A stretch of DNA of 64,000 nucleotides from a virus. Its lineage: Duplodnaviria > Heunggongvirae > Uroviricota > Caudoviricetes. Position 1 is the stretch's first letter. The number at the start of each line of letters is the position of its first letter. Shown one piece after another: positions 30,014 to 54,332 of the stretch. The notes beneath the pieces are model-generated. The model was not told the origin of the DNA, did no database searches, and was given only the letters and a program-made list of their open reading frames with translations. Where the stretch lies: the IMG/VR virus record IMGVR_UViG_3300047666_001531; one strand, given 5' to 3'. Both the position numbers and the translations under genes were made by a program.

Positions 30014-31042
30014 ATGGATGTTGTTTCGTTATACACCGGTGCCGGTGGGATGGATGTTGGTTTTGAAAGTGCGGGTTTTAACGTTGTTGTTGCTGTGGAG
30101 TCAGATAAGATAGCCGCAAAGACTTACCGGCTGAACAATCCACATGTCAAAATGATGGAAGGTGATATTAGGGAGATCATGCCAGATCTCGCTCAGTACA
30201 AAGGAGCAAAGGTCATGATTGGTGGACCCCCGTGTCAGGGGTATTCACTTGCAGGAGTTATGGACTTAGCAGATCCCCGTTCTAACTTGATATTCACATT
30301 TTGTGATGCACTAGATATAGTTCAGCCTGATGTTTTTGTTATGGAGAATGTAGACAATCTTGCTAAGCACGACAAGTTCGAAGCGGTAAGAGAACGCCTT
30401 TATGAACGATTTTCTGATGCAGGTTATGATTTTAAGGTGCATATTGTTGATGCTAGGCGTTATGGCGTTGCTCAAAAACGAAAAAGAATGTTTGTGGTTG
30501 GCAGTAAAACCAAAGCGCCATTTAGTGGGCACCACTTGCTTAGTTATGAGAAACCATTAACAACAGTTAGAAAGGTAATAGGTCATTTAGGTAAACCAGG
30601 GAGTATAACGAATCTATACCCTGCAAAAGCGAGAATAGTGCCGGTGAAAAATCCAGTGTTACGAAGAACTCCTTTCGCTGGCATGCTGTTTAATGGCCAA
30701 GGCCGACCTATTGATTTAGATGGTCTTGCAGGCGCTTTACCGGCGAGTATGGGTGGTAATAGAACACCAATCATCGATCAGCGCTGGTTAGATGATGAAA
30801 GTGTCGAGCCATGGGTTCAGTCATATTACGAAAGAATTAAAGGCGGCACTGCACCTTCAGATATATGCGTACCAGATTTTATGCGTAGATTGACTGCTAC
30901 AGAGGCTGCACTAATACAGACTTTTCCACCAGAATATGTGTTCGCCGGCAGTGTGCCGCAAATGTTTTCTCAGATCGGAAATGCTGTACCTTGTAATGTT
31001 GCGCACGCAGTGGCATGTGCGGTGAAGGAATACATGCTTTAA
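30014..31042 (+). CDS. C5-cytosine DNA methyltransferase (orphan)
   Basis: LYTGAGG, GGPPCQG, MENV, QKRKRMF, QIGNAVP. Confidence 0.93.
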   Translation: MDVVSLYTGAGGMDVGFESAGFNVVVAVESDKIAAKTYRLNNPHVKMMEGDIREIMPDLAQYKGAKVMIGGPPCQGYSLAGVMDLADPRSNLIFTFCDALDIVQPDVFVMENVDNLAKHDKFEAVRERLYERFSDAGYDFKVHIVDARRYGVAQKRKRMFVVGSKTKAPFSGHHLLSYEKPLTTVRKVIGHLGKPGSITNLYPAKARIVPVKNPVLRRTPFAGMLFNGQGRPIDLDGLAGALPASMGGNRTPIIDQRWLDDESVEPWVQSYYERIKGGTAPSDICVPDFMRRLTATEAALIQTFPPEYVFAGSVPQMFSQIGNAVPCNVAHAVACAVKEYML

Positions 31043-31141
31043 TTAATTTGTTTTTAGGTTGTTTTTTCATCAAATTCACTTGACAAAATTACCAAAAGAT
31101 ATAGAATATTATTATTGACTCACACACACAAGGTTAATAAT

Positions 31142-31246
31142 ATGTTTATCGAACAAAGTTTATCTCCCCTAAAATCAAGTGAAATGGTTAATTCACTATT
31201 ACACCACTTGAAAACTAACCCTAAAAACAAACTTAAATATCCATGA
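31142..31246 (+). CDS. Putative 34-aa small protein (MFIEQSLSPLKSSEMVNSLLHHLKTNPKNKLKYP)
   Basis: Near-consensus promoter TTGACA(31080)-16-TAGAAT(31102), AAGGT RBS, ATG 31142, TGA 31244. Confidence 0.5.
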   Translation: MFIEQSLSPLKSSEMVNSLLHHLKTNPKNKLKYP

Positions 31247-31317
31247 ATGTAGTGTGAAGAAAAGGGCATAAAAAAGCGCCCTTAGGACGCTTTTAAATAA
31301 TAGCATTAATTACAATT

Positions 31318-31821
31318 TTATGCTTCAGCTTCTTCTTCAGATTCAGCCATTTCGAAAGCCATTTGCATAGATTCTAAAACTAGCTTTTGATCTATAGCTT
31401 TAAATGTTCTTAAATGAGCTGCCATCGCTGGGTCATATTTTTTGGTCATCGTTGCACGGTAAATTGTAGGCGTACTCTTACCAAAAATGATGCCGACGTT
31501 TTCATTGTTAGGTTGATACTGGAAAGAATCAATATAATCAAAGTAAACCCCAATATCCTGCTCTGGTTTTAATGGCGTTTTAAGCAATTTCGTAATGAGA
31601 GCATTAACCGATCGTTGATTTACCATGGTTAACGTTTCAATATGTCGGACAACCACTAATGGGATCTCAACATTCGAATCAACATTCAAATACTTATATA
31701 CGCTTTGAGCCGACTTGCCAAATAACGCAGCAATAGAGGGAACATCTTCTGCTAGCCCCCATTTGTGCATTAGCGTTATAAAGTCCGGCTTATCTAAATA
31801 AACTACAGCTTCTTTTGTCAT
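31318..31821 (-). CDS. Putative DNA-binding protein with two HTH-like repeats
   Basis: SIAALFGKSAQSVYKYL and NVGIIFGKSTPTIYRA; own promoter carries two operator copies. Confidence 0.6.
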   Translation of the reverse strand: MTKEAVVYLDKPDFITLMHKWGLAEDVPSIAALFGKSAQSVYKYLNVDSNVEIPLVVVRHIETLTMVNQRSVNALITKLLKTPLKPEQDIGVYFDYIDSFQYQPNNENVGIIFGKSTPTIYRATMTKKYDPAMAAHLRTFKAIDQKLVLESMQMAFEMAESEEEAEA

Positions 31822-31932
31822 TTTGTTCCCCTATAGAAGTATTAATCCACTTCTAGTTAATAAATCTTGGCTTTAACATAAGCCAGTACATCAAGTTAAG
31901 GATTAAAATTAGTTTCAATCCAATTTGAGGTA

Positions 31933-31973
31933 ACATTATCATATTGAAAATTATTGTCAAGTCATTATGATAA
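31933..31973 (-). promoter_or_regulatory. Promoter of 31318..31821 with tandem operators
   Basis: Minus strand TTGACA(31960-31955)-N4-TTTTCAATATGATAA-TGT; second site AAGTCATTATGATAA 31959-31973. Confidence 0.7.
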
Positions 31974-32069
31974 GATTTCTTGTATATAGTGATTATTTCT
32001 TATTTATTGTAGTTAATGGGTAGTTTTTTTACCTAAATGAAATTATTTTCACTTTTTTATAAAAATAGG

Positions 32070-32097
32070 TTGACAAAATGATAAAGCGTGATAAATT
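32070..32097 (+). promoter_or_regulatory. Promoter of tRNA operon 1
   Basis: TTGACA(32070)-16-TAAATT(32092) with TG extension; -35 overlaps operator-like TTGACAAAATGATAA. Confidence 0.75.
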
Positions 32098-32155
32098 ATA
32101 CCCAAGTTTGGTTACGGCCATCAATTAATTTAAATTTTTATAGCGAGAGCGAAAA

Positions 32156-32275
32156 ATGTTTACGAATTCATTCAACAGTAATATGACAGCGTTTAGAGGG
32201 GATTATATCTCTTCAGATGTTATTGCTGTGCGAGAATCAAATTCGATAAAAAGCATTAAGGTAGCATCCGCGTAA
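32156..32275 (+). CDS. Putative leader peptide of tRNA operon 1 (MFTNSFNSNMTAFRGDYISSDVIAVRESNSIKSIKVASA)
   Basis: GAGAG RBS-like site, ATG 32156, TAA 32273; composition matches the downstream tRNAs; followed by attenuator hairpins. Confidence 0.75.
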   Translation: MFTNSFNSNMTAFRGDYISSDVIAVRESNSIKSIKVASA

Positions 32276-32354
32276 GACATCCGTCATTGGGTGCTTACGG
32301 CACCCAAGACAAGTTCACAAAGAACCCTTGGGATAATATCTCAAGGGTTTTTTT
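32271..32354 (+). terminator. Attenuator: alternative hairpins plus intrinsic terminator
   Basis: TTGGGTGC/GCACCCAA hairpin (32287-32307); terminator AACCCTTGGGA/TCTCAAGGGTT plus T-run (32323-32354); competing pairings CGTAAG:CTTACG and CCCAAG:CTTGGG. Confidence 0.8.
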
Positions 32355-32430
32355 GTTATTGGGATTTAAAAAGAGTAAGTAGGTGGTCGTTCCGTACTGA
32401 TAATAAGCGGAGCGGCCACCGGAATAAGGA

Positions 32431-32505
32431 GCCGGTGTAGCTGAGTTGGTTTAGCAGCGCACTTGTAATGCGCAGACGGGAGTTCGAATCTCTCCTCCGG
32501 CACCA
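32431..32505 (+). tRNA. tRNA-Thr(TGT)
   Basis: Cloverleaf; anticodon arm GCGCA-CT TGT AA-TGCGC; encoded CCA. Confidence 0.92.
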
Positions 32506-32522
32506 ACATTATAGAAGTTTTA

Positions 32523-32612
32523 GATGAGATGGCCGAGTTGGTCGAAGGCAGCAGGCTGTTAACCTGCCGGAGTTTATCTCCCACATTGGTTCAAATCCAA
32601 TTCTCATCGCCA
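32523..32612 (+). tRNA. tRNA-Asn(GTT) with long variable arm
   Basis: GCAGG-CT GTT AA-CCTGC; V-arm GGAG/CTCC; G73; CCA. Confidence 0.88.
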
Positions 32613-32617
32613 CATTA

Positions 32618-32708
32618 GGAGGGTACTGCTGGGTAGGCTGGCAACCGGTCTTGAAAACCGGAGGATCCATGAGAATGGTTCGGCGTTCGACTCGTCTACC
32701 CTCCGCCA
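32618..32708 (+). tRNA. tRNA-Ser(TGA), 8/4 acceptor/T-stem fold
   Basis: GGAGGGTA/TACCCTCC 8 bp; T-stem GGCG/CGTC; CCGGT-CT TGA AA-ACCGG; long V-arm; G73. Confidence 0.88.
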
Positions 32709-32713
32709 CTTTT

Positions 32714-32791
32714 GCGGGGTTAGCTCAGCTTGGATAGAGTATCTGGCTACGAACCAGAGGGTCACATGTTCAAATCATGTACCCCGCGCCA
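32714..32791 (+). tRNA. tRNA-Arg(ACG)
   Basis: TCTGG-CT ACG AA-CCAGA; CCA. Confidence 0.92.
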
Positions 32792-32843
32792 ATAAGAGTA
32801 AGTAGTAAGGTGATGTAACGATCACAACAGTGTGTAGTGCAGA

Positions 32844-32920
32844 TGCGAAGTGGAGCAGTTTGGTAGCTCGTTGGACTCATAATCCAAAGGTCGCTGGTTC
32901 GAGTCCAGTCTTCGCCTCCA
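32844..32920 (+). tRNA. tRNA-fMet-like (CAT)
   Basis: 1:72 mismatch (T:C), initiator-type D arm TGGAGCAG...TAGCTCG; anticodon stem TTGGA/TCCAA lacks the third G-C pair. Confidence 0.8.
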
Positions 32921-32936
32921 ACACACAACAGTTTTA

Positions 32937-33027
32937 GGTGAGATGGCAGAGTGGCTTAATGCAGGCGACTGCTAATCGTCCGAGGTGTAAAAGCCTTGCA
33001 CAGGTTCGAATCCTGTTCTCACCGCCA
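32937..33027 (+). tRNA. tRNA-Ser(GCT)
   Basis: GGCGA-CT GCT AA-TCGTC; long V-arm; G73; CCA. Confidence 0.92.
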
Positions 33028-33038
33028 CTTTGAAAAAT

Positions 33039-33114
33039 GGGGAAGTAGCTCAGTTGGGAGAGCGGTTGCCTTGCACGCAACAGGTCGCGAGTTCGATTCT
33101 CGCCTTCTCCACCA
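33039..33114 (+). tRNA. tRNA-Ala(TGC)
   Basis: G3:U70 pair; GTTGC-CT TGC AC-GCAAC. Confidence 0.93.
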
Positions 33115-33140
33115 ATTTTTATAATTGGAAATGAAGAATT

Positions 33141-33217
33141 GGAGCGGTAGTTCAGCCGGTTAGAATGCTGGCCTGTCACGCCAGAGGTCGCGGGTTCGAT
33201 CCCCGTCCGCTCCGCCA
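33141..33217 (+). tRNA. tRNA-Asp(GTC)
   Basis: CTGGC-CT GTC AC-GCCAG; CCA. Confidence 0.93.
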
Positions 33218-33230
33218 CATAAGTGTTTTT

Positions 33231-33306
33231 GGGTTGTTAGCTCAGCTGGTAGAGCAGGTCGCTTTTAACGATCTTGTCGGTGATTCGAATTCACCACAAC
33301 CCACCA
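33231..33306 (+). tRNA. tRNA-Lys(TTT)
   Basis: GGTCG-CT TTT AA-CGATC; CCA. Confidence 0.92.
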
Positions 33307-33314
33307 GTTTATGT

Positions 33315-33390
33315 ACAGGTTTAGCTCAGTTGGGAGAGCACCGTCCTTACAAGGCGGATGTCGCAAGTTCGATTCTTGCAACCTGTACCA
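33315..33390 (+). tRNA. tRNA-Val(TAC)
   Basis: CCGTC-CT TAC AA-GGCGG; CCA. Confidence 0.92.
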
Positions 33391-33400
33391 ACTTTGGAAT

Positions 33401-33476
33401 ACCAAGATAGCTCAGTTGGTAGAGTAATGGATTGAAAATCCATGTGTCACTGGTTCGAACCCAGTTCTTGGTACCA
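33401..33476 (+). tRNA. tRNA-Phe(GAA)
   Basis: ATGGA-TT GAA AA-TCCAT; CCA. Confidence 0.92.
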
Positions 33477-33492
33477 CAATTAGGTTTAAAGT

Positions 33493-33568
33493 GTCCCTAT
33501 CGTCTAGCGGCCTAGGACACCGCCCTTTCACGGCGGTAACAGGGGTTCAAATCCCCTTAGGGATACCA
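33493..33568 (+). tRNA. tRNA-Glu(TTC)
   Basis: CCGCC-CT TTC AC-GGCGG; CCA. Confidence 0.93.
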
Positions 33569-33582
33569 CTTTGATTTTTAAT

Positions 33583-33670
33583 GGAGTACGCGCAGTGACG
33601 GAACGACTGCACCGGACTGTAAATCCGGAGCCTCAGGCATATCCCTGTTCGAATCAGGGGTGCTCCACCA
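33583..33670 (+). tRNA. tRNA-Tyr(GTA)
   Basis: CCGGA-CT GTA AA-TCCGG; long V-arm; atypical D arm; CCA. Confidence 0.88.
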
Positions 33671-33700
33671 ATTTTATTTTTTTTTTGAGAGGGTAGTGTT

Positions 33701-33748
33701 ATGAAAAGACGAATACGTGGGCGAATACGAAATATAAATAACGTATAA
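33701..33748 (+). CDS. Putative 15-aa minigene MKRRIRGRIRNINNV inside the tRNA operon
   Basis: GAGAGGG RBS, ATG 33701, TAA 33746; rich in AGA/CGA/ATA codons. Confidence 0.5.
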   Translation: MKRRIRGRIRNINNV

Positions 33749-33749
33749 A

Positions 33750-33825
33750 TGCCCTATAGCTTAATGGTTAAAGCGCAAACCTCATAAGTTTCGAGATGGG
33801 ATTTCGATTATCCCTGGGGCAACCA
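33750..33825 (+). tRNA. tRNA(CAT), probably Ile2 (lysidine-type)
   Basis: CT CAT AA loop; C4-G69/C5-G68 as in TilS substrates; one anticodon-stem mismatch. Confidence 0.7.
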
Positions 33826-33857
33826 TTTAGCAGTAAATTCAGTTTAATAGTTTTAAT

Positions 33858-33932
33858 GACTCGTTAGCTCAGTCTGGATAGAGCAAGTCCCTTCTAAGGA
33901 TTTGGTCGCAAGTTCGAATCTTGCACGAGTTG
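33858..33932 (+). tRNA. tRNA-Arg(TCT), no complete encoded CCA
   Basis: AGTCC-CT TCT AA-GGATT; followed by CC then tRNA-Gly. Confidence 0.9.
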
Positions 33933-33934
33933 CC

Positions 33935-34008
33935 GCAGCGTTGGTATAGTGGATGTGCCTCTGGTTTCCAACCAGATGACGCCAGTTCGATTCTGGCACG
34001 CTGCTCCA
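33935..34008 (+). tRNA. tRNA-Gly(TCC)
   Basis: TCTGG-TT TCC AA-CCAGA; U73; CCA. Confidence 0.88.
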
Positions 34009-34034
34009 TTTTTTAATAAAGCAAGGTAAATGTA

Positions 34035-34151
34035 ATGAAGAAAAAAGTACAAAAAAGAGTGCGGAGTCAGTTTTTTGATAAATCAAAGCGCACAAGTGAA
34101 GCACAAACAGATGCGGTAAAACGCCAAGAAAGAAAAACGTTTGTGTCCTAG
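34035..34151 (+). CDS. Possible 38-aa basic small ORF within the tRNA operon
   Basis: AAGGT RBS-like site, ATG 34035, TAG 34149. Confidence 0.3.
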   Translation: MKKKVQKRVRSQFFDKSKRTSEAQTDAVKRQERKTFVS

Positions 34152-34170
34152 TAGTTGTTAACATTTTTAT

Positions 34171-34246
34171 CGCGAAGTAGCTCAGTTGGTAGAGCAGTCC
34201 CTTCATATGGGATTGGCCAGTAGTTCAAGTCTACTCTTCGCGACCA
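34171..34246 (+). tRNA. tRNA-Met(CAT), elongator
   Basis: Fully paired CGCGAAG/CTTCGCG; GTCCC-TT CAT AT-GGGAT. Confidence 0.82.
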
Positions 34247-34250
34247 CCAT

Positions 34251-34326
34251 AGCGGTATAGCTCAGTTGGTAGAGCACACCCCTGATAAGGGTGAGGTCAC
34301 TGGTTCAAATCCAGTTTCCGCTACCA
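34251..34326 (+). tRNA. tRNA-Ile(GAT)
   Basis: CACCC-CT GAT AA-GGGTG; CCA. Confidence 0.92.
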
Positions 34327-34691
34327 CCTTTATTTCACGGCAAGTAAAGGTAAAACCCAAACCTCTTTCACAATAGACTTGTTACTCCCCAAACGCTGGC
34401 ACTCAACTAAAACAACTTTTTGCAACATTATTGTGTAGCTTTTACAGCAACAATGATACTAGTAAAGAAAGTTTGTTTTTATTTGCTTTAATGCTCGACA
34501 GCGTCCAAATCATTGGTTATTCTGTGTTCATATCCACGCGAGAGCACTTTGACTATTGCATTAAAGAAATGGTTTTAGTTGCTTTAACATCAGAGTTAAC
34601 AATTGCGGTTGTAAACCTCGATTTGGGAGTCATCCCTTTATTGTGTACTCTATAATCTAAGTAGTCAGCAAGGAGCTGGGAGGGGGAGTCA

Positions 34692-35087
34692 TTGAGTAAA
34701 GAGTTACCTACGTCAGATGAATTCTTTGATATAAGCGATATAGGTGTTGAAAGTTACAGATCTATGATTGCAAATAAGTTACTTGCCACTAGGCATCGTC
34801 TGAAAAAGCAAGATTCATCATGGACAAAAGAAAAAATGGCAGAGTATATGGGTCTGTCTATTTCAACTTACAAGCGATGGGAGAAGAGTGGTTCAAGCGA
34901 TGTGAGCGCAATTATCAAGATCAATGTGTTAGCCAATCAGTACCCTGACAAAAAGGAAGAAGCCGAAGCCGAGAAAGGTTTGTTTGGGGAGTTTGGGCAT
35001 TGGTTTGATTCGCTTGTCGGAGGGTTTAAAAAAACATCAGATGTTCCGGTAGATAAAAGTGATGTTTCGGTAAATAAAAGCAGCTAG
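34692..35087 (+). CDS. XRE/Cro-type helix-turn-helix protein
   Basis: WTKEKMAEYMGLSISTYKRWEKSG; GGGGAG RBS before TTG start. Confidence 0.75.
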   Translation: MSKELPTSDEFFDISDIGVESYRSMIANKLLATRHRLKKQDSSWTKEKMAEYMGLSISTYKRWEKSGSSDVSAIIKINVLANQYPDKKEEAEAEKGLFGEFGHWFDSLVGGFKKTSDVPVDKSDVSVNKSS

Positions 35088-35192
35088 CTATAGCTCTATT
35101 ATCATAATGAACAGACAAAAACAGGCTTAGGCCTGTTTTTGTGTGCTTGTGATAAATTAATATAATAGATAATTTGGATAAGGATATTTGTT

Positions 35193-36413
35193 ATGGTTTT
35201 ACCTCCTCAAAAAAAGAACGCGTTAGCCAAGGTAGCAATGGCAACAATGTGCGTTTCTATGTCATGCACAGCATTAGCTGAAGCTTTCCCTGAGAAGACA
35301 GGTTGTGAAGTTATTAACCACTCAAATTACGAACAGTTTATGGAAAAGCGGAGCAACGTTAGCGTTGTCAATCCTTTTAAGCCAGAGACTTGTGTAAAAA
35401 TTGATTACGATGCAGACTACAGCAATAAATTGTCTGTCGATGATTTTGGCGGCAACAAAGATGTTTTGGAGTATTTTGAATCATTTCAAGACAGAAAAAG
35501 AACCCGTGTTGAGATGGTAATGAATTATGACACCAAAAGTCTTTATACCATGTTGCAGTTTAATACGGATGAGTTGAGTATAAAACAGTTTAAAAGCCTT
35601 GCTCGTGGAGAAGATATTAGTGTTTTTATGGATGAGTTGGTTTTTCTTCATGAAATGATGCATTTTGATCCAGATGTGACGCTGAACAGCAGTTTTAGTA
35701 TAGCTAAACGAGAAATGATTTCAGATCTTACGGCTTTGTTGATGTTGAAGTCTAAACACGATCTTAGTATGCCAGAGTTTTTTGAAATCACAGAATCACT
35801 TTTTAATGTTCGTGAAAAAGCTCATAAAATTGAGATGAGAAGTGATCGAAACAAAAGACGTAGAATTAAGGCAGGAGATCATGGCCACTATGATGGTGGT
35901 TTGGCGGACAATATAGAAAGTTTTCTGGGTTACATTAAAGACACTAAAATTGATATAAGGGTCACCACTTTAAATGAAGCCAGAGAAGTAGCTATGCATA
36001 TCATTCATAACTATCAAGGTTCAGAGATGGTAGATCATGAATCTAAAACCATGACGATAAAGAACGATCAGTACCGGCAAGCTTTTTTTGAAATGGAACC
36101 AGGTGAACAAATGGTGTATTACGAAAGAAACAAGCCTTTAATGGGTGGTGAATTGCTGACCATGTTTGAAGATTTACATACATTACTGCCTGCTGAACAA
36201 GAAAAGTTAGACAATGTAGCGCCCGAAATAATAAAAGATGCTAGCCAGTACTTTCACGCTGAGGTTCAAGAAGTCGCGCAAGAGTACTTAGCTTCTATGA
36301 CTTATGACAATGTTGAGCTTACCGCTAGTGTTTCCATTGACAATCAACCGACGTTAACGGTCGATGAACAGGAAAACAATAACGCGATTCAAGGCTCAAG
36401 TATGCGAAGATAG
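35193..36413 (+). CDS. Secreted hypothetical protein with HExxH motif (possible zinc metallopeptidase)
   Basis: Signal peptide; FLHEMMHF followed by a downstream Glu (REMISD). Confidence 0.6.
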   Translation: MVLPPQKKNALAKVAMATMCVSMSCTALAEAFPEKTGCEVINHSNYEQFMEKRSNVSVVNPFKPETCVKIDYDADYSNKLSVDDFGGNKDVLEYFESFQDRKRTRVEMVMNYDTKSLYTMLQFNTDELSIKQFKSLARGEDISVFMDELVFLHEMMHFDPDVTLNSSFSIAKREMISDLTALLMLKSKHDLSMPEFFEITESLFNVREKAHKIEMRSDRNKRRRIKAGDHGHYDGGLADNIESFLGYIKDTKIDIRVTTLNEAREVAMHIIHNYQGSEMVDHESKTMTIKNDQYRQAFFEMEPGEQMVYYERNKPLMGGELLTMFEDLHTLLPAEQEKLDNVAPEIIKDASQYFHAEVQEVAQEYLASMTYDNVELTASVSIDNQPTLTVDEQENNNAIQGSSMRR

Positions 36414-42094: not shown

Positions 42095-45000
42095 GTGGCT
42101 GATTTATATGGCGTGGCCACAGCTCAAGCATCTGAACAAACAGAACAGTATTATTTTAAGCCTTTGGGTGTAACACCGCTCAGTAAGTTGGTTATGCCAA
42201 ACTGGGAGGTTTCGAATAAAACCTATACAGAATGGGAGAACGAGGGTGATGTTTATAACTGTTCAGCTTGGACGCCACCTGAAAATGTCGTTAATCTTGA
42301 TGAAGAGTTCACTCAAAGCCGTGAATGCTCTCAGAAACAATCCCGCTATCGCACACATAAAAAGTGGTCAGAACGCCTAAAAAAAGAGCGTAAAGAGGGA
42401 CCTTTTTATGAAAGCAGAGTTATCAATATTGAAGAAACCCAAGATTCAGTAGGTACCCGAGATTATATTACCGGTGAACGTGCAGATGCTTATCCTAATT
42501 GGTCTAAGGTAGGTGGTTTTTATGGGTGTGGTGATTGGTCACCAGATCCATCTGAAGTTAACTATGGTGCAACATTTACTCAATCGAGAGACTGTTCTTG
42601 GGATGAAGATCGTCAACGTGATGTTTTTGATACGTGGCAGTCTGGTCGTGAAACATATAGCCGAACAGACTCTGAAGAAAGAACCGTACCTTATGCTGAT
42701 TCACGCGAATCTACTGGTACGTATCGCGATTGGCAACCTACGTCATCGACTTATACAGTTTGGGGAGATGTGGATGCAGATTATGGGCATGGTTCATGGT
42801 CACCAGCGCCAAGCACTCAACCATCAGATTTTATTCAGTCACGTGAGTATAAACGTGATCAAGAACGATATGAGCAAAAGCGCGAACAAGATCAGGTAAC
42901 GGAAGATTACCGTAATGTGGGTTCGCCTGTGTTGCACAACCAAACTGTAGATCGAAGTGAAGATAGGAACGTTGCTGTTAACTATACTTTATGGGAAGAA
43001 ATCGAACGAAGCGATTATACACCATGGTCGCCAGCGCCATCTAGTCAAACCACATCGTTTACTCAAACTCGAAACTACGCATTCACAGAAGAGCGTGAAC
43101 GTTTTTATACAACTGCCGGCGAAGGTGAGTTGTTAAGAGTGACAGAAAGAAGCGAACCGGTAGAACAAAGCGAATCTCGCCCTGTTACCGTAGCATACAC
43201 GCCGTGGACAGAAACGGGAGAAAACTATGATTGCAGCACCTGGTCACCGGCTAGAGACAGTGTAGGTGTTGGTGAGTCTTATATGCAAGCTCGTTCATGT
43301 AAGCAAGATGAAATTCGTGACCGTGTTTACACTAATGAGTCTACTGAGTTAAATCGTGTAGAAGAAAGTCGTATATTAACCCCAATACAAACTCGTGAAC
43401 AAACCGGCGAAGGAAGTTGGGAGAAACACCCGTCAGCTTTCTCTGATTGGGAAAATGAAGGTTCACGTTACGAATATACTCCTTGGACTCCTGCATCTTC
43501 TGAACAAAAATCTGATTTCTCTCAAAGTCGTGGCTTCAAGCAAAATGAAACACGATATGAGCAAGGACGTGAACGTGATGTCCATTCTGGTACTATCAGA
43601 GATGAAGGTGAGCCTATCAAGCATGATCGTACTGTCGCTGGTCAAGAAAGTCGAAGTGTTGTGGTTAACTTAGGTAGTTGGTCGAATACTGCTCGCAGTT
43701 CAGAAACATCATGGTCACCGGCCGCGTCAACTCAAACAAGTGATTTTACGCAATCGATGGGTTATACGCAGCATCAAACGCGCACAGTGGTGCACAATGC
43801 ACCATCAGAGGTGCACCGTTTTACAGATTCGCAAGCATTAGCAAACCAAACTGACACTCGTGCTGTTTCAGTTTCTTTTGGCGCATGGGAAAACAGTGGC
43901 GCAATTAAGGACTGTGGTGGTTGGAGTCCTGCTGAGAACACTGTAGCGTATAATGAATCTTATACTCAAACACGCGAGTGTGATCAAGGTCAAGTTAGAG
44001 ATCGAGTTTACAAAGCTGATGGTAATGCGCTTAAGACTTTTGTTGAGAGTCGCACAGTTAAAGTAAATGATACTCAAAATGCTACAGGTACAGGTAACTG
44101 GGTGGCGCATGCTTCAACGTTTACCTCGTGGGTGGATGATGGTGGTCGTCATACGTATAGTGCTTATACGCCAGCGCCTGCTAATCAAACAAGTAACTAC
44201 ACTCAAAGCAGAAGCTACAAGCAAAATCAAGCCCGAAATGAGCAAAAACGTGAGCGTGATACTATCGGTGGTTCAATCCGTAATGTTGGCTCTCCAATTC
44301 CTCGTTCACAAACGATTGACGGTAGTGAGTCTCGTACTGTTTCAGTAACAGCAAGTGATTGGGCAAATGGCGCTACAAGTGGTCATAGTGCATGGTCACC
44401 GGCACCAACAACCCAAACAAGCAATTACACGCGCAGTCGCACTTATAACCAAGCGCAAAGTCGTGTTTGGACGCATAAAGTAGGTACTAGCAGTATTCAT
44501 ACGCGCAATGAATCACGTACATTGTCTAACCAAACTCAATCTCAAACGGTTGTGGTTTCATGGACAAGTTGGGTGAACAATGGTGCAATGGTATCGTGTG
44601 GTGATTGGACGCCAGCGCCGAATACGGTAGCGTACAACCAAAGCTATACGCAAACTAGAAGCTGTCAACAACCTCAAAAACGGGATCGTGTTTATAAGGT
44701 TGGCTCAACGACAATTGGTTCAGCAGCAGAGACGCGTAACACTTCTGCCAGTCAGACGCAAAATGCTACTGGTACAGGTAATTGGGTGGCACATACCTCT
44801 ACATTTACTTCGTGGGTAAATGAAGGTGCTGGTTATGCTTATGGGTCGTATAGTCCTGAAGCGACAAATCAGACCTCAAACTTTTGGCAGTCTAGAAGCT
44901 ATAAGCAAAATCAGACTAGAAATGAGCAGAAGCGCGAGCGTGATACCATTGGTGGGTCTGTTCGTAACGTAGGCGCACCAATAGCTAGATCTAAGACGGT

Positions 45001-45637
45001 CGATAGTGAAGATGCTCGTTTAGTTACAGTTACTAGGGGTTACTGGGAAGTCGTGGGTGATGCGATATCTTGTACGGAGCCTAGCCCTGCATTTGGCGAA
45101 CAGAAAAGCAGCTATACGCAAAGTCAAACTTGTGATTACAACGAAGAACGTGTTTACAGTTACAGTGTCGGCGGTGAATATGTTGAAAAACAGGTTACTC
45201 CTAAATATGGCAGCTGGTCGGTTTCAGTGTCCGGTGTAGCGGGTTCTAAGTACGAAGAGTTTGATCATGGTGCATGGTCGCCAAGTATTGACGAGAGTTG
45301 GTATAGTTTTAACCAGTTCCAGAGTTATTCTGCTCATCAGTACTCGAAATATACTCATAAGATAGGTGGCGAGATTGTTTTTGAGAATGAGTTTATAACT
45401 CATACGTATGAAGGTGATCGAACTAAAAAGAGATGGCTGGATGTAACTACTCCTGATGGTTGGGTTGATGATGAGTCACGCGAAAGGGTTTGTGGTGAAT
45501 GGAATGAACAATACAACATCCGTGACTGTACTCAGCCAACCAAGATGACGCATTACTATCGCGACAGAGCGAAACCAGATGTGTTAATTGGTGTTCGTGA
45601 TAGACTTAGCTCTAGAAGTGTTAGGGAAACAAGATAG
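42095..45637 (+). CDS. Giant Trp/Cys/Thr-rich repeat protein (thrombospondin-type-1-like repeats), copy 1; signal peptide damaged
   Basis: 1180 aa of W..W....C..WSP...TQ.R.C.Q...R.R units; paralog of the downstream gene. Confidence 0.75.
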   Translation: MADLYGVATAQASEQTEQYYFKPLGVTPLSKLVMPNWEVSNKTYTEWENEGDVYNCSAWTPPENVVNLDEEFTQSRECSQKQSRYRTHKKWSERLKKERKEGPFYESRVINIEETQDSVGTRDYITGERADAYPNWSKVGGFYGCGDWSPDPSEVNYGATFTQSRDCSWDEDRQRDVFDTWQSGRETYSRTDSEERTVPYADSRESTGTYRDWQPTSSTYTVWGDVDADYGHGSWSPAPSTQPSDFIQSREYKRDQERYEQKREQDQVTEDYRNVGSPVLHNQTVDRSEDRNVAVNYTLWEEIERSDYTPWSPAPSSQTTSFTQTRNYAFTEERERFYTTAGEGELLRVTERSEPVEQSESRPVTVAYTPWTETGENYDCSTWSPARDSVGVGESYMQARSCKQDEIRDRVYTNESTELNRVEESRILTPIQTREQTGEGSWEKHPSAFSDWENEGSRYEYTPWTPASSEQKSDFSQSRGFKQNETRYEQGRERDVHSGTIRDEGEPIKHDRTVAGQESRSVVVNLGSWSNTARSSETSWSPAASTQTSDFTQSMGYTQHQTRTVVHNAPSEVHRFTDSQALANQTDTRAVSVSFGAWENSGAIKDCGGWSPAENTVAYNESYTQTRECDQGQVRDRVYKADGNALKTFVESRTVKVNDTQNATGTGNWVAHASTFTSWVDDGGRHTYSAYTPAPANQTSNYTQSRSYKQNQARNEQKRERDTIGGSIRNVGSPIPRSQTIDGSESRTVSVTASDWANGATSGHSAWSPAPTTQTSNYTRSRTYNQAQSRVWTHKVGTSSIHTRNESRTLSNQTQSQTVVVSWTSWVNNGAMVSCGDWTPAPNTVAYNQSYTQTRSCQQPQKRDRVYKVGSTTIGSAAETRNTSASQTQNATGTGNWVAHTSTFTSWVNEGAGYAYGSYSPEATNQTSNFWQSRSYKQNQTRNEQKRERDTIGGSVRNVGAPIARSKTVDSEDARLVTVTRGYWEVVGDAISCTEPSPAFGEQKSSYTQSQTCDYNEERVYSYSVGGEYVEKQVTPKYGSWSVSVSGVAGSKYEEFDHGAWSPSIDESWYSFNQFQSYSAHQYSKYTHKIGGEIVFENEFITHTYEGDRTKKRWLDVTTPDGWVDDESRERVCGEWNEQYNIRDCTQPTKMTHYYRDRAKPDVLIGVRDRLSSRSVRETR

Positions 45638-45650
45638 TGTAGCTAAATAT

Positions 45651-45677
45651 AAAAAGGCGGGTTTCCCCGCCTTTTTT
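45651..45677 (+). terminator. Intrinsic terminator
   Basis: AAAAAGGCGGG-TTT-CCCCGCCTTTTTT. Confidence 0.88.
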
Positions 45678-45763
45678 GTATTTAATTGTTCGTGGTGATG
45701 GATATTTACTCTTTTGTGATAAGTTTGTTTATGTGAAAAACAATTTAGCAAAGGAATGCTGTC

Positions 45764-48700
45764 ATGCTGACAAAAAAACTCACCTTAGGAATAATGGCTG
45801 CTTTATATGGTGCTGGAACAGCCTATGCAACAGAGCCAACCAACCCATACATATACAAGCCTTTTGGCCTAAAGCCATTAAGTCAGGCAGTTGTGCCGGA
45901 CTGGGAAAAGAAAAACAGTGAGTACACTGCTTGGCAAAACGAAGGTGCTGTTTATAACTGTTCAGCTTGGACACCGCCTGAAAATGTCGTTAATCTAGAT
46001 GAAGAATTTACGCAAAGCCGCGAATGTTCTCAAAGTCAATCTAGAACCCGAACTGATGAAATGTATTCTCAGCGCCTTGATCAAACTCGCTATGAAGGAC
46101 CATTTGGTGAATCAAGAGTTATCACTGTTGAAGAAAGTCAAGATTCAGTAGGTACGCGAGATTATATTACCGGTGAACGTGAAGATGCTTACCCTAATTG
46201 GTCTAAGGTAGGTGGTTTCTACGGTTGTGGAAGTTGGTCACCTGATCCATCTGAAATTAATTATGGCGCAACATTTACTCAAGAGCGAGATTGTTCTTGG
46301 GATGAAGATCGTCAACGAAATGTATTTAATACATGGCAGTCTGGTCGTGAAACGTATAACCGTACTGATTCTGAAGGTAGAACTGTGCCTTATACAGATT
46401 CACGAGAATCTACGGGCACGTATCGTGATTGGCAACCAACGTCATCGACTTATACGGCTTGGGAAGATGTAGGTACAGATCATTCTCATACTTCATGGTC
46501 ACCAGCGCCAAGCACTCAGCCGTCAGATTTCACACAATCACGTGAATATAAGCGTGATCAAGAGCGATATGAACAAAAGCGTGAGCAAGATCAGGTAACC
46601 GATGATTACCGTAATACAGGTTCGCCGGTATTACATGAACAAACGGTAGATCGAAGTGAAGATCGAGATGTTACTGTTGATTATACCTCTTGGGAAGAAG
46701 TGAATCGTAGTGCTTATACGTCATGGTCGCCTGCGCCGACTGTTCAAACAGCATCATACAATCAAACTCGAAATTACACGCTTACAGAAGAACGTGAACG
46801 TTCTTATACTGCTGCGGGTGATGGTGAATTACTAACGGCAACAGAAAGTCGCGATACGGTAGAACAAACAGAATCACGTCCTGTTACTGTGACGTATACG
46901 TCATGGGAAGAAACAGGCACCAATTATGACTGTGGCACCTGGGCACCGGCTAGAGACACTGTAGGTGTTGATGAAGCCTACACTCAAACGCGCTCATGTA
47001 AGCAAGATGAAGTTCGCGATCGTGTTTACACTAATGAATCAACAGAATTAAATCGTGTTGAAGAAGGTCGTACATTAACACCAACCCAAAGCCGTGCACA
47101 AACAGGTGAGGGTAGCTGGGTTACTCATGATTCGACATTTACCAGCTGGGAAAATGAAGGTTCTCGTTACGGTTACACCGCGTGGTCTCCTGTATCTTCT
47201 AATCAAAAATCCGATTTCACTCAAAGTCGTGACTTCAAACAAAATGAAACACGAAATGAGCAAGAGCGTGAACGTGATATTCATTCTGGTACTATTCGAA
47301 ATGTAGGAGAACCTATCAAACGCGACCGCACCGTTTCTGGTGAAGAAAGTCGTAGTGTTGTAGTTAACTTAGGTAGTTGGTCTGATACCACGCGAAGTGC
47401 AGAAACATCATGGTCACCGGCACCGTCTAATCAAACAACTGGTTTTACTCAGTCAATGGGTTATACGCAGCATCAAGCTCGCACAGTGGTGCACAATGCA
47501 CCATCTGAGGTGCACCGCTTTACAGATACGCAAGCGTTAGTAAACCAAACAGACACACGTCCTGTTTCAGTTTCTTTTAGTGAATGGTCAAACAGCGGCG
47601 CAATAAAAAATTGTGGTGGTTGGAGTCCTGCTGAGAACACTGTAGCGTATAATGAATCTTACACTCAAACACGCGAGTGTGATCAAGACCAAGTTAGAAA
47701 TCGTTCTTACCGTGCTGATGGTAGTGTACTTAATACCTTCGTAGAAAACAGAACTGTTAAGGTTAATGACACTCAAAATGCTACAGGTACAGGTAACTGG
47801 GTGGCGCATGCTTCAACGTTTACGTCATGGATAAATAGTGGTGGTCGTCATACTTATAGTAGTTATTCACCAACACCTACTACCCAAACAACTACATTTA
47901 GTCAGTCTAGAAGCTACAAGCAAAACCAGACTAGAAATGAGCAAAAACGCGAACGCGACACTATCGGTGGTTCAATCCGTAATGTTGGCTCTCCAATTGC
48001 TCGCTCACAAACTATCAATGGTAGTGAGTCTAGAAATGTAACTGTTGCTTGGTCTAGCTGGTCAAATAGCGGCGGTAAATACTCATGTGGTGCTTATAAT
48101 AACCCTCATGGAAATCAGACTGCAAGCTACACTCAAACACGCGTTTGTAAGCAAAATCAAACTCGAACACGTACTTATTCATCGGGTGAGAGCTTTAGTG
48201 AATCTAAAGTTATCAACTCAAATGATTCACGTACAGTAACGGTGACTGTTGGTGGTTGGTCGAACACTTCAACATCAGGTCATTCTTCATGGTCGCCTGC
48301 GGCTAGTTCTCAAACGAGTAACTACTCTCAATCAAGAAGCTACACTCAGACACAACGTAGAGTGTGGACGCATAAGGTTGGTAGTACAACGGTTCACACG
48401 CGCAACGAAGATCGTAATTTGACGGGTCAAACTCAGTCTCGTTCAATTACTGTGACCAATGCTGCTGGTGCTTACGGCTCTAACTACGGTTACGGTTCAT
48501 GGTCACCAACACCGACTAGTCAGACTGCAACGTTTACGCAAACACGCGGTTACAAGCGAGATAGAACAAGAACGTATACTCATAAATCGGGTACTACGAC
48601 TATTCACACTCGCGGCGTAACAGAAACCGGTAACTTTAGTCAGTCAAGAAATGTGACGGTGAGTTGGTCTAGCTGGGCAAATAGTGGTGCTAAGTATTCA

Positions 48701-49996
48701 TGTGGGGCGTACAACAACCCTTATGGCAGCCAAACTGCAAGCTACACTCAAACACGCGTTTGTAAGCAAAACCAAACTCGAACACGTACCTATTCATCGG
48801 GTGAAAGCTTTGGTGAAAGTCGCACTGTGAATGCAAATGACTCACGTACTGTGACGGTGACTGTTGGTGGTTGGTCGAATACGTCAACATCAGCTCACAC
48901 AGCATGGTCGCCTACGGCTGGATCACAAACAAGTAATTATTCGCAGTCGCGAAGCTACACTCAGACACAACGTAGAGTGTGGACGCATAAAGTTGGAACT
49001 TCAACGGTTTATACCCGAAATGAAGATCGTAACTTGACGGGTCAAAGTCAGTCTCGTTCAATTACTGTGACCAATGCCGTAGGAGCTTATGGTTCAAACC
49101 ATAGTTACGGTTCATGGACACCAGCAGCGAGTGCGCAGACATCTAACTTTAGCCAAACTCAGTCTTATAAGCGTAACAGAACAAGAACGTATACTCATAA
49201 ATCGGGTACTACGACTATTCACACTCGCAGCGTGACAGAAACGAGCAACTTTAGTCAATCACGTTCTGTGGCAGTTAGTTGGTCAACGTGGGTTAATAAT
49301 GGCACGGCAACTTGTGGAGGCTGGTCTAAAGATGCTAAAACTGGAGCTAAGACAAGATCATGTAGTCAACCAGAGAAACGTACTCGTACTTACAAGGTTG
49401 GTACTTCGACTATTCACTCTGCTACTGAAACGAAAAATCGTAGTTACTCAGAGACGATAACGGTTACGGGTACGACTTATGGTTCTTGGTCAGGTTATTC
49501 GAATCAAGGTTCGCCATACGATTGTTCTGCTTCTTGGTCGCCTGCTGCTAGTACAGTAGAATCAGGTACTACATTTACTCAGTCTAGATCGTGTAAGCAA
49601 AATCAACGTAGACAGCGCAATAAATACACAACCTACTCTGATGGTTCACAAGATTATGTTGGTCTTGACTACGGAACGCGCATTATTACTGTGTACCAAA
49701 CAAGACAGGCCACTGGGACAAAGATAACTGAGGAGTGTTATACAGGTGGTTATGAGTATAGATCAGACTACGGTTATGAGAACGGCGATTATTGTGATAT
49801 TGAATATGAAATCTGGCGTTTTAATGGAGTTACGATTTACAAATATAATTTTGATGAGTGTCGTGGTGGTAACAGATACGAGTATTCTCCAGGAACATTT
49901 AGTGGTCGTGACACTTATTTATATAATGGTTACAAATACACCTTGAAAAATGTGGTCAATGGCTATCAAGGAGATGTTTGTAGAGTGCCACAGTAA
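45764..49996 (+). CDS. Giant secreted Trp/Cys/Thr-rich repeat protein (TSP1-like repeats), copy 2
   Basis: 1410 aa, AAGGA RBS, signal peptide ending AYA, same repeat grammar, distinct C-terminal domain. Confidence 0.8.
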   Translation: MLTKKLTLGIMAALYGAGTAYATEPTNPYIYKPFGLKPLSQAVVPDWEKKNSEYTAWQNEGAVYNCSAWTPPENVVNLDEEFTQSRECSQSQSRTRTDEMYSQRLDQTRYEGPFGESRVITVEESQDSVGTRDYITGEREDAYPNWSKVGGFYGCGSWSPDPSEINYGATFTQERDCSWDEDRQRNVFNTWQSGRETYNRTDSEGRTVPYTDSRESTGTYRDWQPTSSTYTAWEDVGTDHSHTSWSPAPSTQPSDFTQSREYKRDQERYEQKREQDQVTDDYRNTGSPVLHEQTVDRSEDRDVTVDYTSWEEVNRSAYTSWSPAPTVQTASYNQTRNYTLTEERERSYTAAGDGELLTATESRDTVEQTESRPVTVTYTSWEETGTNYDCGTWAPARDTVGVDEAYTQTRSCKQDEVRDRVYTNESTELNRVEEGRTLTPTQSRAQTGEGSWVTHDSTFTSWENEGSRYGYTAWSPVSSNQKSDFTQSRDFKQNETRNEQERERDIHSGTIRNVGEPIKRDRTVSGEESRSVVVNLGSWSDTTRSAETSWSPAPSNQTTGFTQSMGYTQHQARTVVHNAPSEVHRFTDTQALVNQTDTRPVSVSFSEWSNSGAIKNCGGWSPAENTVAYNESYTQTRECDQDQVRNRSYRADGSVLNTFVENRTVKVNDTQNATGTGNWVAHASTFTSWINSGGRHTYSSYSPTPTTQTTTFSQSRSYKQNQTRNEQKRERDTIGGSIRNVGSPIARSQTINGSESRNVTVAWSSWSNSGGKYSCGAYNNPHGNQTASYTQTRVCKQNQTRTRTYSSGESFSESKVINSNDSRTVTVTVGGWSNTSTSGHSSWSPAASSQTSNYSQSRSYTQTQRRVWTHKVGSTTVHTRNEDRNLTGQTQSRSITVTNAAGAYGSNYGYGSWSPTPTSQTATFTQTRGYKRDRTRTYTHKSGTTTIHTRGVTETGNFSQSRNVTVSWSSWANSGAKYSCGAYNNPYGSQTASYTQTRVCKQNQTRTRTYSSGESFGESRTVNANDSRTVTVTVGGWSNTSTSAHTAWSPTAGSQTSNYSQSRSYTQTQRRVWTHKVGTSTVYTRNEDRNLTGQSQSRSITVTNAVGAYGSNHSYGSWTPAASAQTSNFSQTQSYKRNRTRTYTHKSGTTTIHTRSVTETSNFSQSRSVAVSWSTWVNNGTATCGGWSKDAKTGAKTRSCSQPEKRTRTYKVGTSTIHSATETKNRSYSETITVTGTTYGSWSGYSNQGSPYDCSASWSPAASTVESGTTFTQSRSCKQNQRRQRNKYTTYSDGSQDYVGLDYGTRIITVYQTRQATGTKITEECYTGGYEYRSDYGYENGDYCDIEYEIWRFNGVTIYKYNFDECRGGNRYEYSPGTFSGRDTYLYNGYKYTLKNVVNGYQGDVCRVPQ
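48035..49270 (+). repeat. Internal tandem duplication of ~615 bp (~205 aa) in copy 2
   Basis: Block starting ...WSSW(S/A)NSG(G/A)KYSCGAYNNP... occurs at ~48035 and ~48650 with high nucleotide identity; boundaries approximate. Confidence 0.85.
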
Positions 49997-53500: not shown

Positions 53501-53505
53501 GTTGA

Positions 53506-53574
53506 TGGTGAGCACCGGTATCGAACCGGCCTCCTCTAATTTTCAATCCGTTGCCAATCAGTCTTGGCAAGCAC
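53506..53574 (-). pseudogene. Degenerate tRNA remnant (probably Cys-derived)
   Basis: Intact T-arm GCCGG-TTCGATA-CCGGT and CCA, but a 4-bp acceptor and unpaired anticodon stem (CGGATTGAAAATTAG). Confidence 0.6.
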
Positions 53575-53622
53575 AAAAAATTAAATATCACCCTCTCAGG
53601 TAGTGTGTATCTTATTCTAATG

Positions 53623-53710
53623 TGGCGTAGGTACTAGGAGTCGAACCTAGAAGGGGCTTTTAAGCTTCCCACGGTTTTGGAGACCGCTTTGCTCACCAAT
53701 GCGTACCTAC
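53623..53710 (-). tRNA. tRNA-Trp(CCA) with long variable arm and short D arm
   Basis: GTAGGTA/TACCTAC; GCGGT-CT CCA AA-ACCGT; V-arm GGG.GCT-TAAA-AGC.CCC; G73; CCA. Confidence 0.8.
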
Positions 53711-53718
53711 TTGTATAT

Positions 53719-53792
53719 TGGAGCACCATACGGAGTCGAACCGTGTAACTAGGGTTGCAATCTAGCGCCTTACCAAACTCGGCCAATAGTGC
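53719..53792 (-). tRNA. tRNA-Cys(GCA)
   Basis: GCACTAT/ATGGTGC; TT GCA AC loop; U73; CCA. Confidence 0.88.
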
Positions 53793-53850
53793 ATTAAACT
53801 TTTCTTGTTCTTTATTTAAACTCTAAACACATTTCCTACGGTTTATGTAT

Positions 53851-53927
53851 TGGTCGGTGATGCAAGATTCGAACTTGCGACCCCTTCGCCCCAAACGAAG
53901 TGCGCTACCAGACTGCGCTAATCACCG
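53851..53927 (-). tRNA. tRNA-Pro(TGG), copy 2
   Basis: CGGTGAT/ATCACCG; CTTCG-TT TGG GG-CGAAG; CCA. Confidence 0.93.
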
Positions 53928-53956
53928 ATAACCGATAACCGATAACATAAAAAAGG

Positions 53957-54031
53957 TGGAAGGGGGAGGGGATTTGAACCCGCCGCACTGTCAGTCAAAG
54001 TGACATGCTCTACCAATTAAGCTATCCCCCC
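53957..54031 (-). tRNA. tRNA-Gln(TTG), bulged T-stem
   Basis: TGTCA-CT TTG AC-TGACA; T-stem 3' strand one nt short; CCA. Confidence 0.8.
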
Positions 54032-54033
54032 AT

Positions 54034-54110
54034 TGGTCGGTGATGCAAGATTCGAACTTGCGACCCCTTCGTCCCAAACGAAGTGCGCTACCAAACTGCG
54101 CTAATCACCG
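54034..54110 (-). tRNA. tRNA-Pro(TGG), copy 1
   Basis: CTTCG-TT TGG GA-CGAAG; two differences from copy 2. Confidence 0.93.
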
Positions 54111-54118
54111 ATATACGA

Positions 54119-54146
54119 ATAATATATCATTCCAAACAAAAGTCAA
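54119..54146 (-). promoter_or_regulatory. Proximal promoter candidate of tRNA operon 2
   Basis: Minus strand TTGACT-16-TATTAT ending ~8 nt before tRNA-Pro. Confidence 0.6.
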
Positions 54147-54225: not shown

Positions 54226-54332
54226 TTAAAAAAGCCCTTAGACATACGTCTAAAGGCTTTAATAAGAGGGCTTCTTCAGACATATACGAATAACCGTTAT
54301 GACTGAATATCTATTTATTTACTTAATTCAGC
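54226..54332 (-). terminator. Attenuator of tRNA operon 2: alternative hairpins plus intrinsic terminator
   Basis: Terminator AAAGCCTTTAGAC-GTAT-GTCTAAGGGCTTT plus T-run; antiterminator ATATGTCTGAAG:CTTTAGACGTAT (12 bp); anti-antiterminator TTCAGTCATA:TATGTCTGAA; stop-codon pairing CTGAAT:ATTCAG. Confidence 0.8.

Follow-up and report, generated by a model that had tools for sequence, protein, structure and literature searches.

The tRNA operon, its leader and the predicted RNA switch

The 64,000-nucleotide stretch of DNA analysed here (IMG/VR record IMGVR_UViG_3300047666_001531), referred to below as the window, carries a cluster of 18 transfer RNA (tRNA) genes, array 1, which lies behind a promoter, a short open reading frame (ORF) that we call leader 1, and an intrinsic terminator. 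An earlier note, made from the sequence alone, had read this arrangement as an attenuator of the trp/his type whose leader peptide matches the tRNAs it precedes. The promoter, 39-codon ORF, hairpins, terminator and 18 tRNAs that it described are all present where it had placed them. Its list of anticodons for the 18 tRNAs is the same as that called by ARAGORN, and the peptide it quoted is the translation of the ORF at 32156-32275. The locus comprises:

32070-32099, plus strand: sigma-70-type promoter of the leader and tRNA operon 1 (TTGACA-16-TAAATT at 32070-32097, 10 of 12 matches, extended -10 TGnTAAATT; promoter scan)
32145-32149, plus strand: Shine-Dalgarno-like GAGAG, 6 nucleotides 5' of the ATG (seen in the sequence; GAGA invariant in alignment A2)
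32156-32275, plus strand: leader ORF 1, 39 sense codons and TAA (ORF scan)
32196-32214, plus strand: hairpin within leader ORF 1, with an 8-pair stem, over Phe-Arg-Gly codons (hairpin scan)
32271-32283, plus strand: switch segment 1, which overlaps the stop codon (32273-32275) and pairs with segment 2 if free of ribosomes (folding)
32288-32299, plus strand: switch segment 2, partner of segment 1 or segment 3 (folding)
32300-32309, plus strand: switch segment 3 (GCACCCAAG), forming a hairpin with segment 2 or an antiterminator with CUUGGG of segment 4 (folding)
32319-32356, plus strand: intrinsic terminator with a 16-pair stem, 5' arm (segment 4) at 32319-32334 and 3' arm at 32338-32353, followed by a U run (scan)
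32382-32420, plus strand: 14-pair hairpin between the terminator and tRNA-Thr, kept in four lineages, with 4 pairs retained through changes on both sides
32431-34326, plus strand: tRNA array 1, 18 genes (ARAGORN)

The tRNA genes follow one another in the order Thr, Asn (with a class II body), Ser, Arg, initiator-like Met, Ser, Ala, Asp, Lys, Val, Phe, Glu, Tyr, Ile2-like CAU, Arg, Gly, Met and Ile. A promoter scan between the leader-1 terminator and array 1 revealed no promoter-like site. The locus therefore has a ribosome-binding site and a short ORF followed by an intrinsic terminator with no intervening promoter, the arrangement by which an attenuator is recognised. The hairpin within leader ORF 1 is a candidate RNA polymerase pause hairpin; codons 13-15 beneath it are TTT AGA GGN in three of the four lineages compared below and ACT AGA GGA in the fourth (L017), codons 14-15 being invariant. 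The hairpin at 32382-32420 may be a processing or stabilising element. The promoter region (32070-32099) also contains two TGATAA operator-like half-sites that are conserved in relatives, and a repressor may act there on top of the attenuator.

The amino acids encoded by leader 1 are exactly those served by array 1 (14 of 14), and none of the 18 tRNAs lacks a cognate codon in the leader, TCC being the only codon that requires extended wobble. As the earlier note had reported, Leu, Pro, Gln, Cys, Trp and His are missing. It had also proposed a comparison with other short ORFs, and among the 161 ATG-started ORFs of 30-50 codons in the window leader 1 is the only one without any of these six residues. 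The probability of finding no outside residue in 38 codons is 3e-4 given the composition of the element's proteome and 4e-5 given the leader's own base composition, and the probability of exact equality between the leader-1 and array-1 sets is ~1e-4. The composition match is more than chance.

The leader RNA was folded with and without a masked ribosome. The minimum-free-energy fold of nascent RNA ending at 32334 (-25.3 kcal/mol) combines CGUAAG(A)CAUCC:GGGUGCUUACG with CCCAAG:CUUGGG, that is, segment 1 paired with segment 2 and segment 3 with segment 4, and these are the antiterminator pairings that the earlier note had drawn. When segment 1 was masked in RNA ending at the same position, segments 2 and 3 formed a hairpin (-16.4 kcal/mol) and segment 4 was free. 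The switch is visible only for nascent RNA that ends before the 3' arm of the terminator. With the ribosome A-site placed at codons 1-34 the antiterminator probability in silico was 0.94-0.99, and at codon 35 to the stop it was 0. Any delay within codons 1-34 is thus predicted to give read-through, which fits regulatory codons spread across the ORF. In untranslated nascent RNA the antiterminator is mostly unformed (probability 0.31), because the ribosome-binding region around GAGAG pairs with the stop-codon region in segment 1. A ribosome-dependent switch is also predicted for the three relatives of this leader (L015, L019 and L017). Folding and comparative data together support the trp/his-type architecture.

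These results suggest that a ribosome-mediated (leader-peptide) transcription attenuator gates the 18-gene tRNA operon, a reading that we consider likely. It is built on the anatomy of the locus, the predicted alternative folds, their conservation, and the co-variation of leader and array described below; from these we infer that the leader is translated, that polymerase and ribosome are coupled, and that termination is regulated in response to a physiological trigger. Transcription would start at the 32070 promoter, and the leader would be translated while RNA polymerase advances. When decoding is fast, the ribosome would get to the last codons or the stop and cover segment 1 (32271-32283); segments 2 and 3 would then pair, segment 4 would be free, the terminator (32319-32353) would form, and transcription would stop before the tRNAs. 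When the ribosome is delayed in codons 1-34, segments 1 and 2 would pair, segment 3 would pair with CUUGGG, and the polymerase would read into the array. Untranslated RNA would mostly terminate. Since the leader has codons for the amino acids of the array and for no others, shortage of any one would induce the whole set. The switching on of all 18 genes by a shortage of any charged tRNA species of the set would amount to negative feedback on tRNA supply. We speculate that the trigger is an anticodon nuclease or starvation.

Transcripts of the region were found in one RNA sequencing metatranscriptome, which holds two 151-nucleotide contigs with 100% identity to the window and no contigs on the flanking protein genes. 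One contig (32222-32372) spans the terminator, and the other (32384-32534) spans the junction hairpin into tRNA-Thr and tRNA-Asn. Both are compatible with a read-through precursor. A natural variant, from sequencing run X16, differs in the leader region by a 1-base deletion at 32135 (5' of the ribosome-binding site), 32309 A>G and 32350 T>C, and these changes leave the leader-1 ORF as it is. The change at 32309 adds an antiterminator pair, the seventh, and G is also the base at this position in the three relatives; the change at 32350 turns a G-U pair of the terminator into G-C.

Related lineages and a second leader

Relatives of the array-1 locus were found through the divergent neighbour gene at 31318-31821 (minus strand). 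Homologues with 84%, 71% and 72% identity lie on syntenic contigs, of marine metagenome origin, that carry tRNA arrays, and a pattern scan of metagenome contigs returned the same three related lineages (L015, L019 and L017) and no others. All four lineages, the window included, keep the promoter, which is invariant in alignment A2, the GAGA site, ATG TTT ACN, exactly 39 codons, TAA, the switch and the terminator (32319-32356). The switch region is 85-94% identical between lineages, compared with 58-68% for the coding part, where 18-22 of the 39 codons differ by residue and 3-7 are synonymous differences. The coding columns contain no indels and no in-frame stops, whereas the other two frames carry 1-6 stops. 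A frame kept despite such turnover of residues is the signature of an ORF whose translation matters and whose peptide does not. A conserved micropeptide was rejected as unlikely, as about half of the residues change between close relatives.

This pattern bears on the idea that the leader is a ribosome-independent RNA switch, whether a T-box-like tRNA-binding leader or one that binds a protein or metabolite, with the ORF incidental. The conservation of the switch segment at 85-94% would suit such a device, and the operator-like promoter sites indicate that protein control exists at some level. The frame, length, start, stop and Shine-Dalgarno sequence of the ORF are nevertheless kept through heavy sequence turnover, the stop codon lies in segment 1 of this leader and of the second leader described below, and there is no Rfam riboswitch or T-box match. 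We regard this explanation as very unlikely.

Ribosome-mediated attenuation by a codon sampler predicts that the leader should change with its array. The contents of the four array-1 loci and their leaders are:

Window: array of 18 tRNAs for 14 amino acids; leader with exactly those 14
L015: array with the window set plus tRNA-His and tRNA-Cys; leader with exactly those 16
L019: array with tRNA-His, with only the 5' half of tRNA-Arg(ACG), and with tRNA-Asp deleted; leader with one His codon, at position 29
L017: six detected tRNAs (Thr, Ser, Ser, Lys, CAU, Ile); leader poorly matched

The leader of L015 has a single codon each for His (position 6) and Cys (position 17) and none for Leu, Pro, Gln or Trp, and the probability of this exact 16 of 16 set equality is ~8e-5. 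The leader of L019 has no Cys, Leu, Pro, Gln or Trp codon, and its single His codon stands at position 29 rather than 6, so it was not inherited in place. Across the three fuller lineages, 26 variable positions take 61 residue states, none of which is Leu, Pro, Gln or Trp (probability 2e-3 to 2e-5, depending on the number of states counted as independent). His and Cys codons occur in the leader only where the array has tRNA-His and tRNA-Cys, and their presence or absence fits the arrays in all 8 lineage-by-residue cells (p ~0.006, a rough hand estimate from background frequencies). The earlier note had suggested that leader codons might co-vary with tRNA content in homologous arrays. This is borne out fully by L015 and for His by L019; it fails for the Arg and Asp codons left over in L019 and for L017, where the match is poor. 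The comparison supports a leader-1 composition that follows tRNA content across lineages, imperfectly.

The window contains a second array with a leader of its own, on the minus strand:

54328-54405, minus strand: leader ORF 2, 25 codons, of which 10 are Gln, Pro, Cys or Trp (ORF scan)
54228-54334, minus strand: leader-2 switch and terminator (folding; conserved in alignment A3)
54119-54146, minus strand: strong second promoter, TTGACT-16-TATTAT, downstream of the leader-2 terminator and immediately before array 2 (promoter scan; conserved in relatives, A3)
53623-54110, minus strand: tRNA array 2, Pro, Gln, Pro, Cys, Trp (ARAGORN)

The ribosome-binding and start region of leader 2 resembles that of leader 1. 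Among 251 ORFs of 20-35 codons, leader 2 is the only one in which at least 40% of codons are Pro, Gln, Cys or Trp. The division of amino acids between the two leaders mirrors that between the two arrays (Fisher p = 1.5e-5). Leader 2 is predicted to form the same five-segment chain as leader 1, with segment 1 at 54334-54326 (covering the stop codon), segment 2 at ~54308-54301, segment 3 at ~54283-54274, and the terminator at 54260-54231 with a U run to 54228. It switches when the RNA ends at the end of segment 4, and a truncation that includes the terminator loop hides the switch. Relatives of array 2 were found by anchoring on a Calx-beta neighbour gene, and their tRNA contents are:

Window: Pro, Gln, Pro, Cys, Trp
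L026: Pro, Gln, Pro, Trp, Cys
L029: Gln, Cys and a decayed tRNA-Pro
L032: Pro, Gln, Trp
L036: array cut by the contig end

In each of the five lineages leader 2 has 10 Gln, Pro, Cys or Trp codons out of 25-26, at varying positions. These observations support the view that leader 2, matched to Pro, Gln, Cys and Trp, replicates the leader-1 design.

The second array also bears on whether each promoter, short ORF and terminator form an independent small unit, such as a micropeptide gene or small RNA. The composition match would then be a coincidence or a product of shared codon bias, and constitutive read-through or other promoters would supply the tRNAs. Such a unit would explain why a conserved promoter for array 2 follows the leader-2 terminator, why the leaders of L017 and, in part, L019 are mismatched, and why the terminator is thermodynamically dominant. 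It is hard to reconcile with array 1, where the scan found no promoter-like site of its own after the terminator, and with the position of the stop codon, which in both leaders and all lineages falls in a segment that takes part in mutually exclusive helices. A functional peptide is unlikely when about half of its residues change between close relatives, and coincidence fits poorly with the composition statistics and with His and Cys codons having been gained along with their tRNAs. On balance we think an independent unit improbable.

The leader could also be a real ribosome-mediated attenuator that senses general elongation speed or amino-acid starvation, through charging, rather than tRNA abundance, with its restricted alphabet set by some other constraint. 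In keeping with this, a stall at any of codons 1-34 is predicted to have the same outcome, stalling cannot separate an uncharged tRNA from a missing one, and codon-level matching in relatives is loose. A general sensor leaves unexplained why the excluded residues are exactly those without an array tRNA, why codons for His and Cys come with the matching tRNA genes, and why two leaders divide the amino acids between them as two arrays do. We therefore consider a sensor of this general kind unlikely.

Several observations weigh against attenuation of the tRNA operon by a leader matched to its tRNAs. Leader translation and regulated termination rest on sequence and folding inference, and the RNA evidence consists of two contigs at depth 2, which cannot show RNA ends. 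At equilibrium the full leader always forms the terminator, wherever the masked ribosome is placed, so that the model leans on co-transcriptional kinetics and on an unproven pause. Little pair covariation was seen in the leader-1 switch across the four lineages, because the switch is almost invariant. With 1-2 codons per tRNA, the leader should have low sensitivity to mild shortage. The earlier note had claimed that the match reaches the level of isoacceptors; this stands for the window, where every tRNA has its codon, but matching at the codon level is loose in the relatives, with three ACC codons in L015 and GCC and GGT in L019. The leader of L019 also retains CGA, AGA and GAT despite its tRNA-Arg(ACG) pseudogene and absent tRNA-Asp. 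In the L017 leader the codons for Asp, Glu and Tyr have been lost, three Leu codons and one Gln codon have been gained, and many residues are encoded for which the six-gene array has no tRNA. At the second array, conserved helices contain the Gln, Pro and Trp codons of leader 2, which may therefore be retained for structural reasons, and leader 2 is weaker evidence than leader 1. The conserved promoter at 54146-54119 stands between the leader-2 terminator and the tRNAs and bypasses the attenuator, which means that array 2 is not under attenuator control alone; its expression would comprise a basal level and attenuator-controlled read-through.

Beyond the two loci, we lean with moderate confidence towards a general design in which 'pan-codon' leader peptides autoregulate the tRNA arrays of large mobile elements and phages. 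A translated sampler of the served codon families would precede each array and be reshaped by selection as tRNAs are gained and lost, as with His and Cys here. The element would thereby gauge decoding speed and replenish tRNAs on demand, for example after host tRNA cleavage or shut-off.

Unusual tRNAs and the surrounding element

Several tRNA genes of these arrays are unusual. One of them, whose anticodon GUU is that of Asn, is built as a class II tRNA, with a 3-pair D stem, a long variable arm and G73. It lies at 32523-32612 in the window, at 5198-5287 in L015 and at 4826-4914 in L019, and its presence in three lineages indicates that it is not an accident of one sequence. It may be charged by asparaginyl-tRNA synthetase via the anticodon or by seryl-tRNA synthetase via the long arm. 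The tRNA-Trp(CCA) of array 2 (53623-53710, minus strand) is 88 nucleotides long and has a long extra arm; the Rfam model that fits it best, tRNA-Sec, scores 41.3 bits, below the 47-bit threshold, and the tRNA-Trp genes of L026 and L032 are ordinary (74-77 nucleotides). On the 3' side of this gene, at 53505-53580 (minus strand), lies a T-arm-like sequence, GGTTCGATACC, together with a 7-pair hairpin, TTGCCAA/TTGGCAA, a stretch that neither ARAGORN nor Rfam called as a tRNA. An unusual tRNA-like gene missed by ARAGORN is found in L019 (~3560-3660, minus strand) and L017 (~4860-4950, minus strand). Its anticodon loop reads CUUCUAA (UCU, Arg); the extra arm is long, the T arm is normal, CCA is present and there is no clear D arm, and the gene may still serve AGA in these two lineages. 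Two pseudogenes, the 5' half of tRNA-Arg(ACG) in L019 (~4520-4620, minus strand) and a tRNA-Pro without an anticodon arm in L029 (~2400-2470, minus strand), were also found. On this comparison of sequences, the tRNA arrays of these lineages gain and lose genes quickly.

Array 1 also contains two small genes. A 15-codon minigene at 33701-33748 (plus strand) is rich in ATA, CGA, AGA and GGG and stops one base 5' of the Ile2-like CAU tRNA, which is followed by tRNA-Arg(UCU) and tRNA-Gly(UCC); no terminator was found 3' of it. A very basic ORF of 38 residues, starting MKKKVQKR, lies at 34035-34151 (plus strand), before the last two tRNAs of the array, and its protein sequence is kept in L019 and L017.

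The window seems to be a segment of a very large mobile element. Its sequence recurs on metagenome contigs of up to 583 kilobases, from polar ice and seawater samples, and the replicon measures 0.33-0.58 megabases. The flanking genes encode an NAD-dependent ligase, a 5'-3' exonuclease, several cytosine methylases, a ribonucleotide reductase and a TonB-dependent receptor, and matches of the element's proteins to PHROGs, Pfam and NCBIfam did not decide between phage and plasmid. Two adjoining huge ORFs of 1180 and 1410 residues (42095-49996, plus strand), in a G+C-richer stretch, had no match in Pfam, PHROGs or NCBIfam. In sequencing run X10, labelled as a single organism and not as a metagenome, positions 31900-34400 are present at 100% identity at a contig depth of ~165, and given this run a cultured or enriched host of the element may exist.

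Further searches for relatives added no lineages. Near and distant DNA searches of phage and plasmid collections gave generic tRNA matches only. A protein search of plasmids with the neighbour gene 31318-31821 gave no match, and a search with this gene found no viral contig. The start-region pattern common to both leaders hit 14 viral contigs, none with tRNAs, and these were set aside as chance matches. Two pattern scans of genome contigs and one of viral contigs were empty. In L021, L034 and L037 the array or the leader is absent.

Comparison with known regulatory leaders

How tRNA levels are set in bacteria and mobile elements is poorly understood, and their control is usually ascribed to promoters, through growth rate and the stringent response. 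If the proposed attenuation is true, it would provide direct feedback from decoding speed to tRNA synthesis, and would help to account for the near-complete tRNA sets of giant phages and plasmids, which could be carried without the cost of constant expression. It would also supply a signature, leader composition equal to array content, by which such units could be found and annotated. A fast-changing leader that stays within the alphabet of its array would be an unusually clear case of selection on codon identity and not on the peptide.

Leader-peptide attenuators control the amino-acid operons of enterobacteria, as in trpL, hisL, thrL and ilvL of ilvGMEDA, and in the thr and ilv operons a leader responds to more than one amino acid. 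Like these, the leader-1 unit has a promoter, a short leader predicted to be translated, mutually exclusive hairpins and an intrinsic terminator, with the position of the ribosome setting the fold. Its regulatory codons are likewise cognate to what the operon supplies, and its untranslated RNA is likewise predicted to terminate. Unlike them, it would regulate tRNAs and not enzymes. Known leaders carry runs of codons for 1-3 amino acids, whereas leader 1 samples 14 (for 18 tRNAs) with 1-5 codons each, and nearly the whole ORF (codons 1-34) is regulatory in the folding model. The output would also restore the sensed tRNA itself and not the amino acid. A nearer parallel is pheM-pheST of E. coli, in which a Phe-rich leader controls phenylalanyl-tRNA synthetase. 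Here too leader-peptide attenuation acts on a component of the translation machinery rather than on biosynthesis; pheM differs in having a single amino-acid specificity and a protein product.

The T-boxes of Gram-positive bacteria recognise uncharged tRNA by direct binding that involves no translation, and the genes under their control are those for synthetases, biosynthesis and transporters. T-boxes resemble the leader-1 unit in that transcription attenuation responds to the state of specific tRNAs, and they differ in that leader 1 is conserved as an ORF and has no T-box match: none was found at an E-value of up to 1 over 31000-35500, nor of up to 10 over 32100-32420. In Rfam, leader 1 scored 32.2 bits against RF00514 (His_leader) and 26.8 bits against RF04312 (trpB motif), for which the gathering thresholds are 49 and 59 bits, and leader 2 scored 35.8 bits against RF04312, also below threshold. 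The likeness to both families is a weak full-length alignment of a hairpin and a terminator. Leader 1 was not assigned to the His leader family, given its score of 32.2 against 49 bits and the lack of any His codon.

The earlier note knew of no such control of tRNA arrays. Full-text literature searching likewise returned no report of leader-peptide attenuation of tRNA genes, and the one paper joining all the searched themes mentions a tRNA operon in another context only. The class of mechanism is classical; what is new is its tRNA-array target, its breadth of 14-16 amino acids and its tracking of array content.

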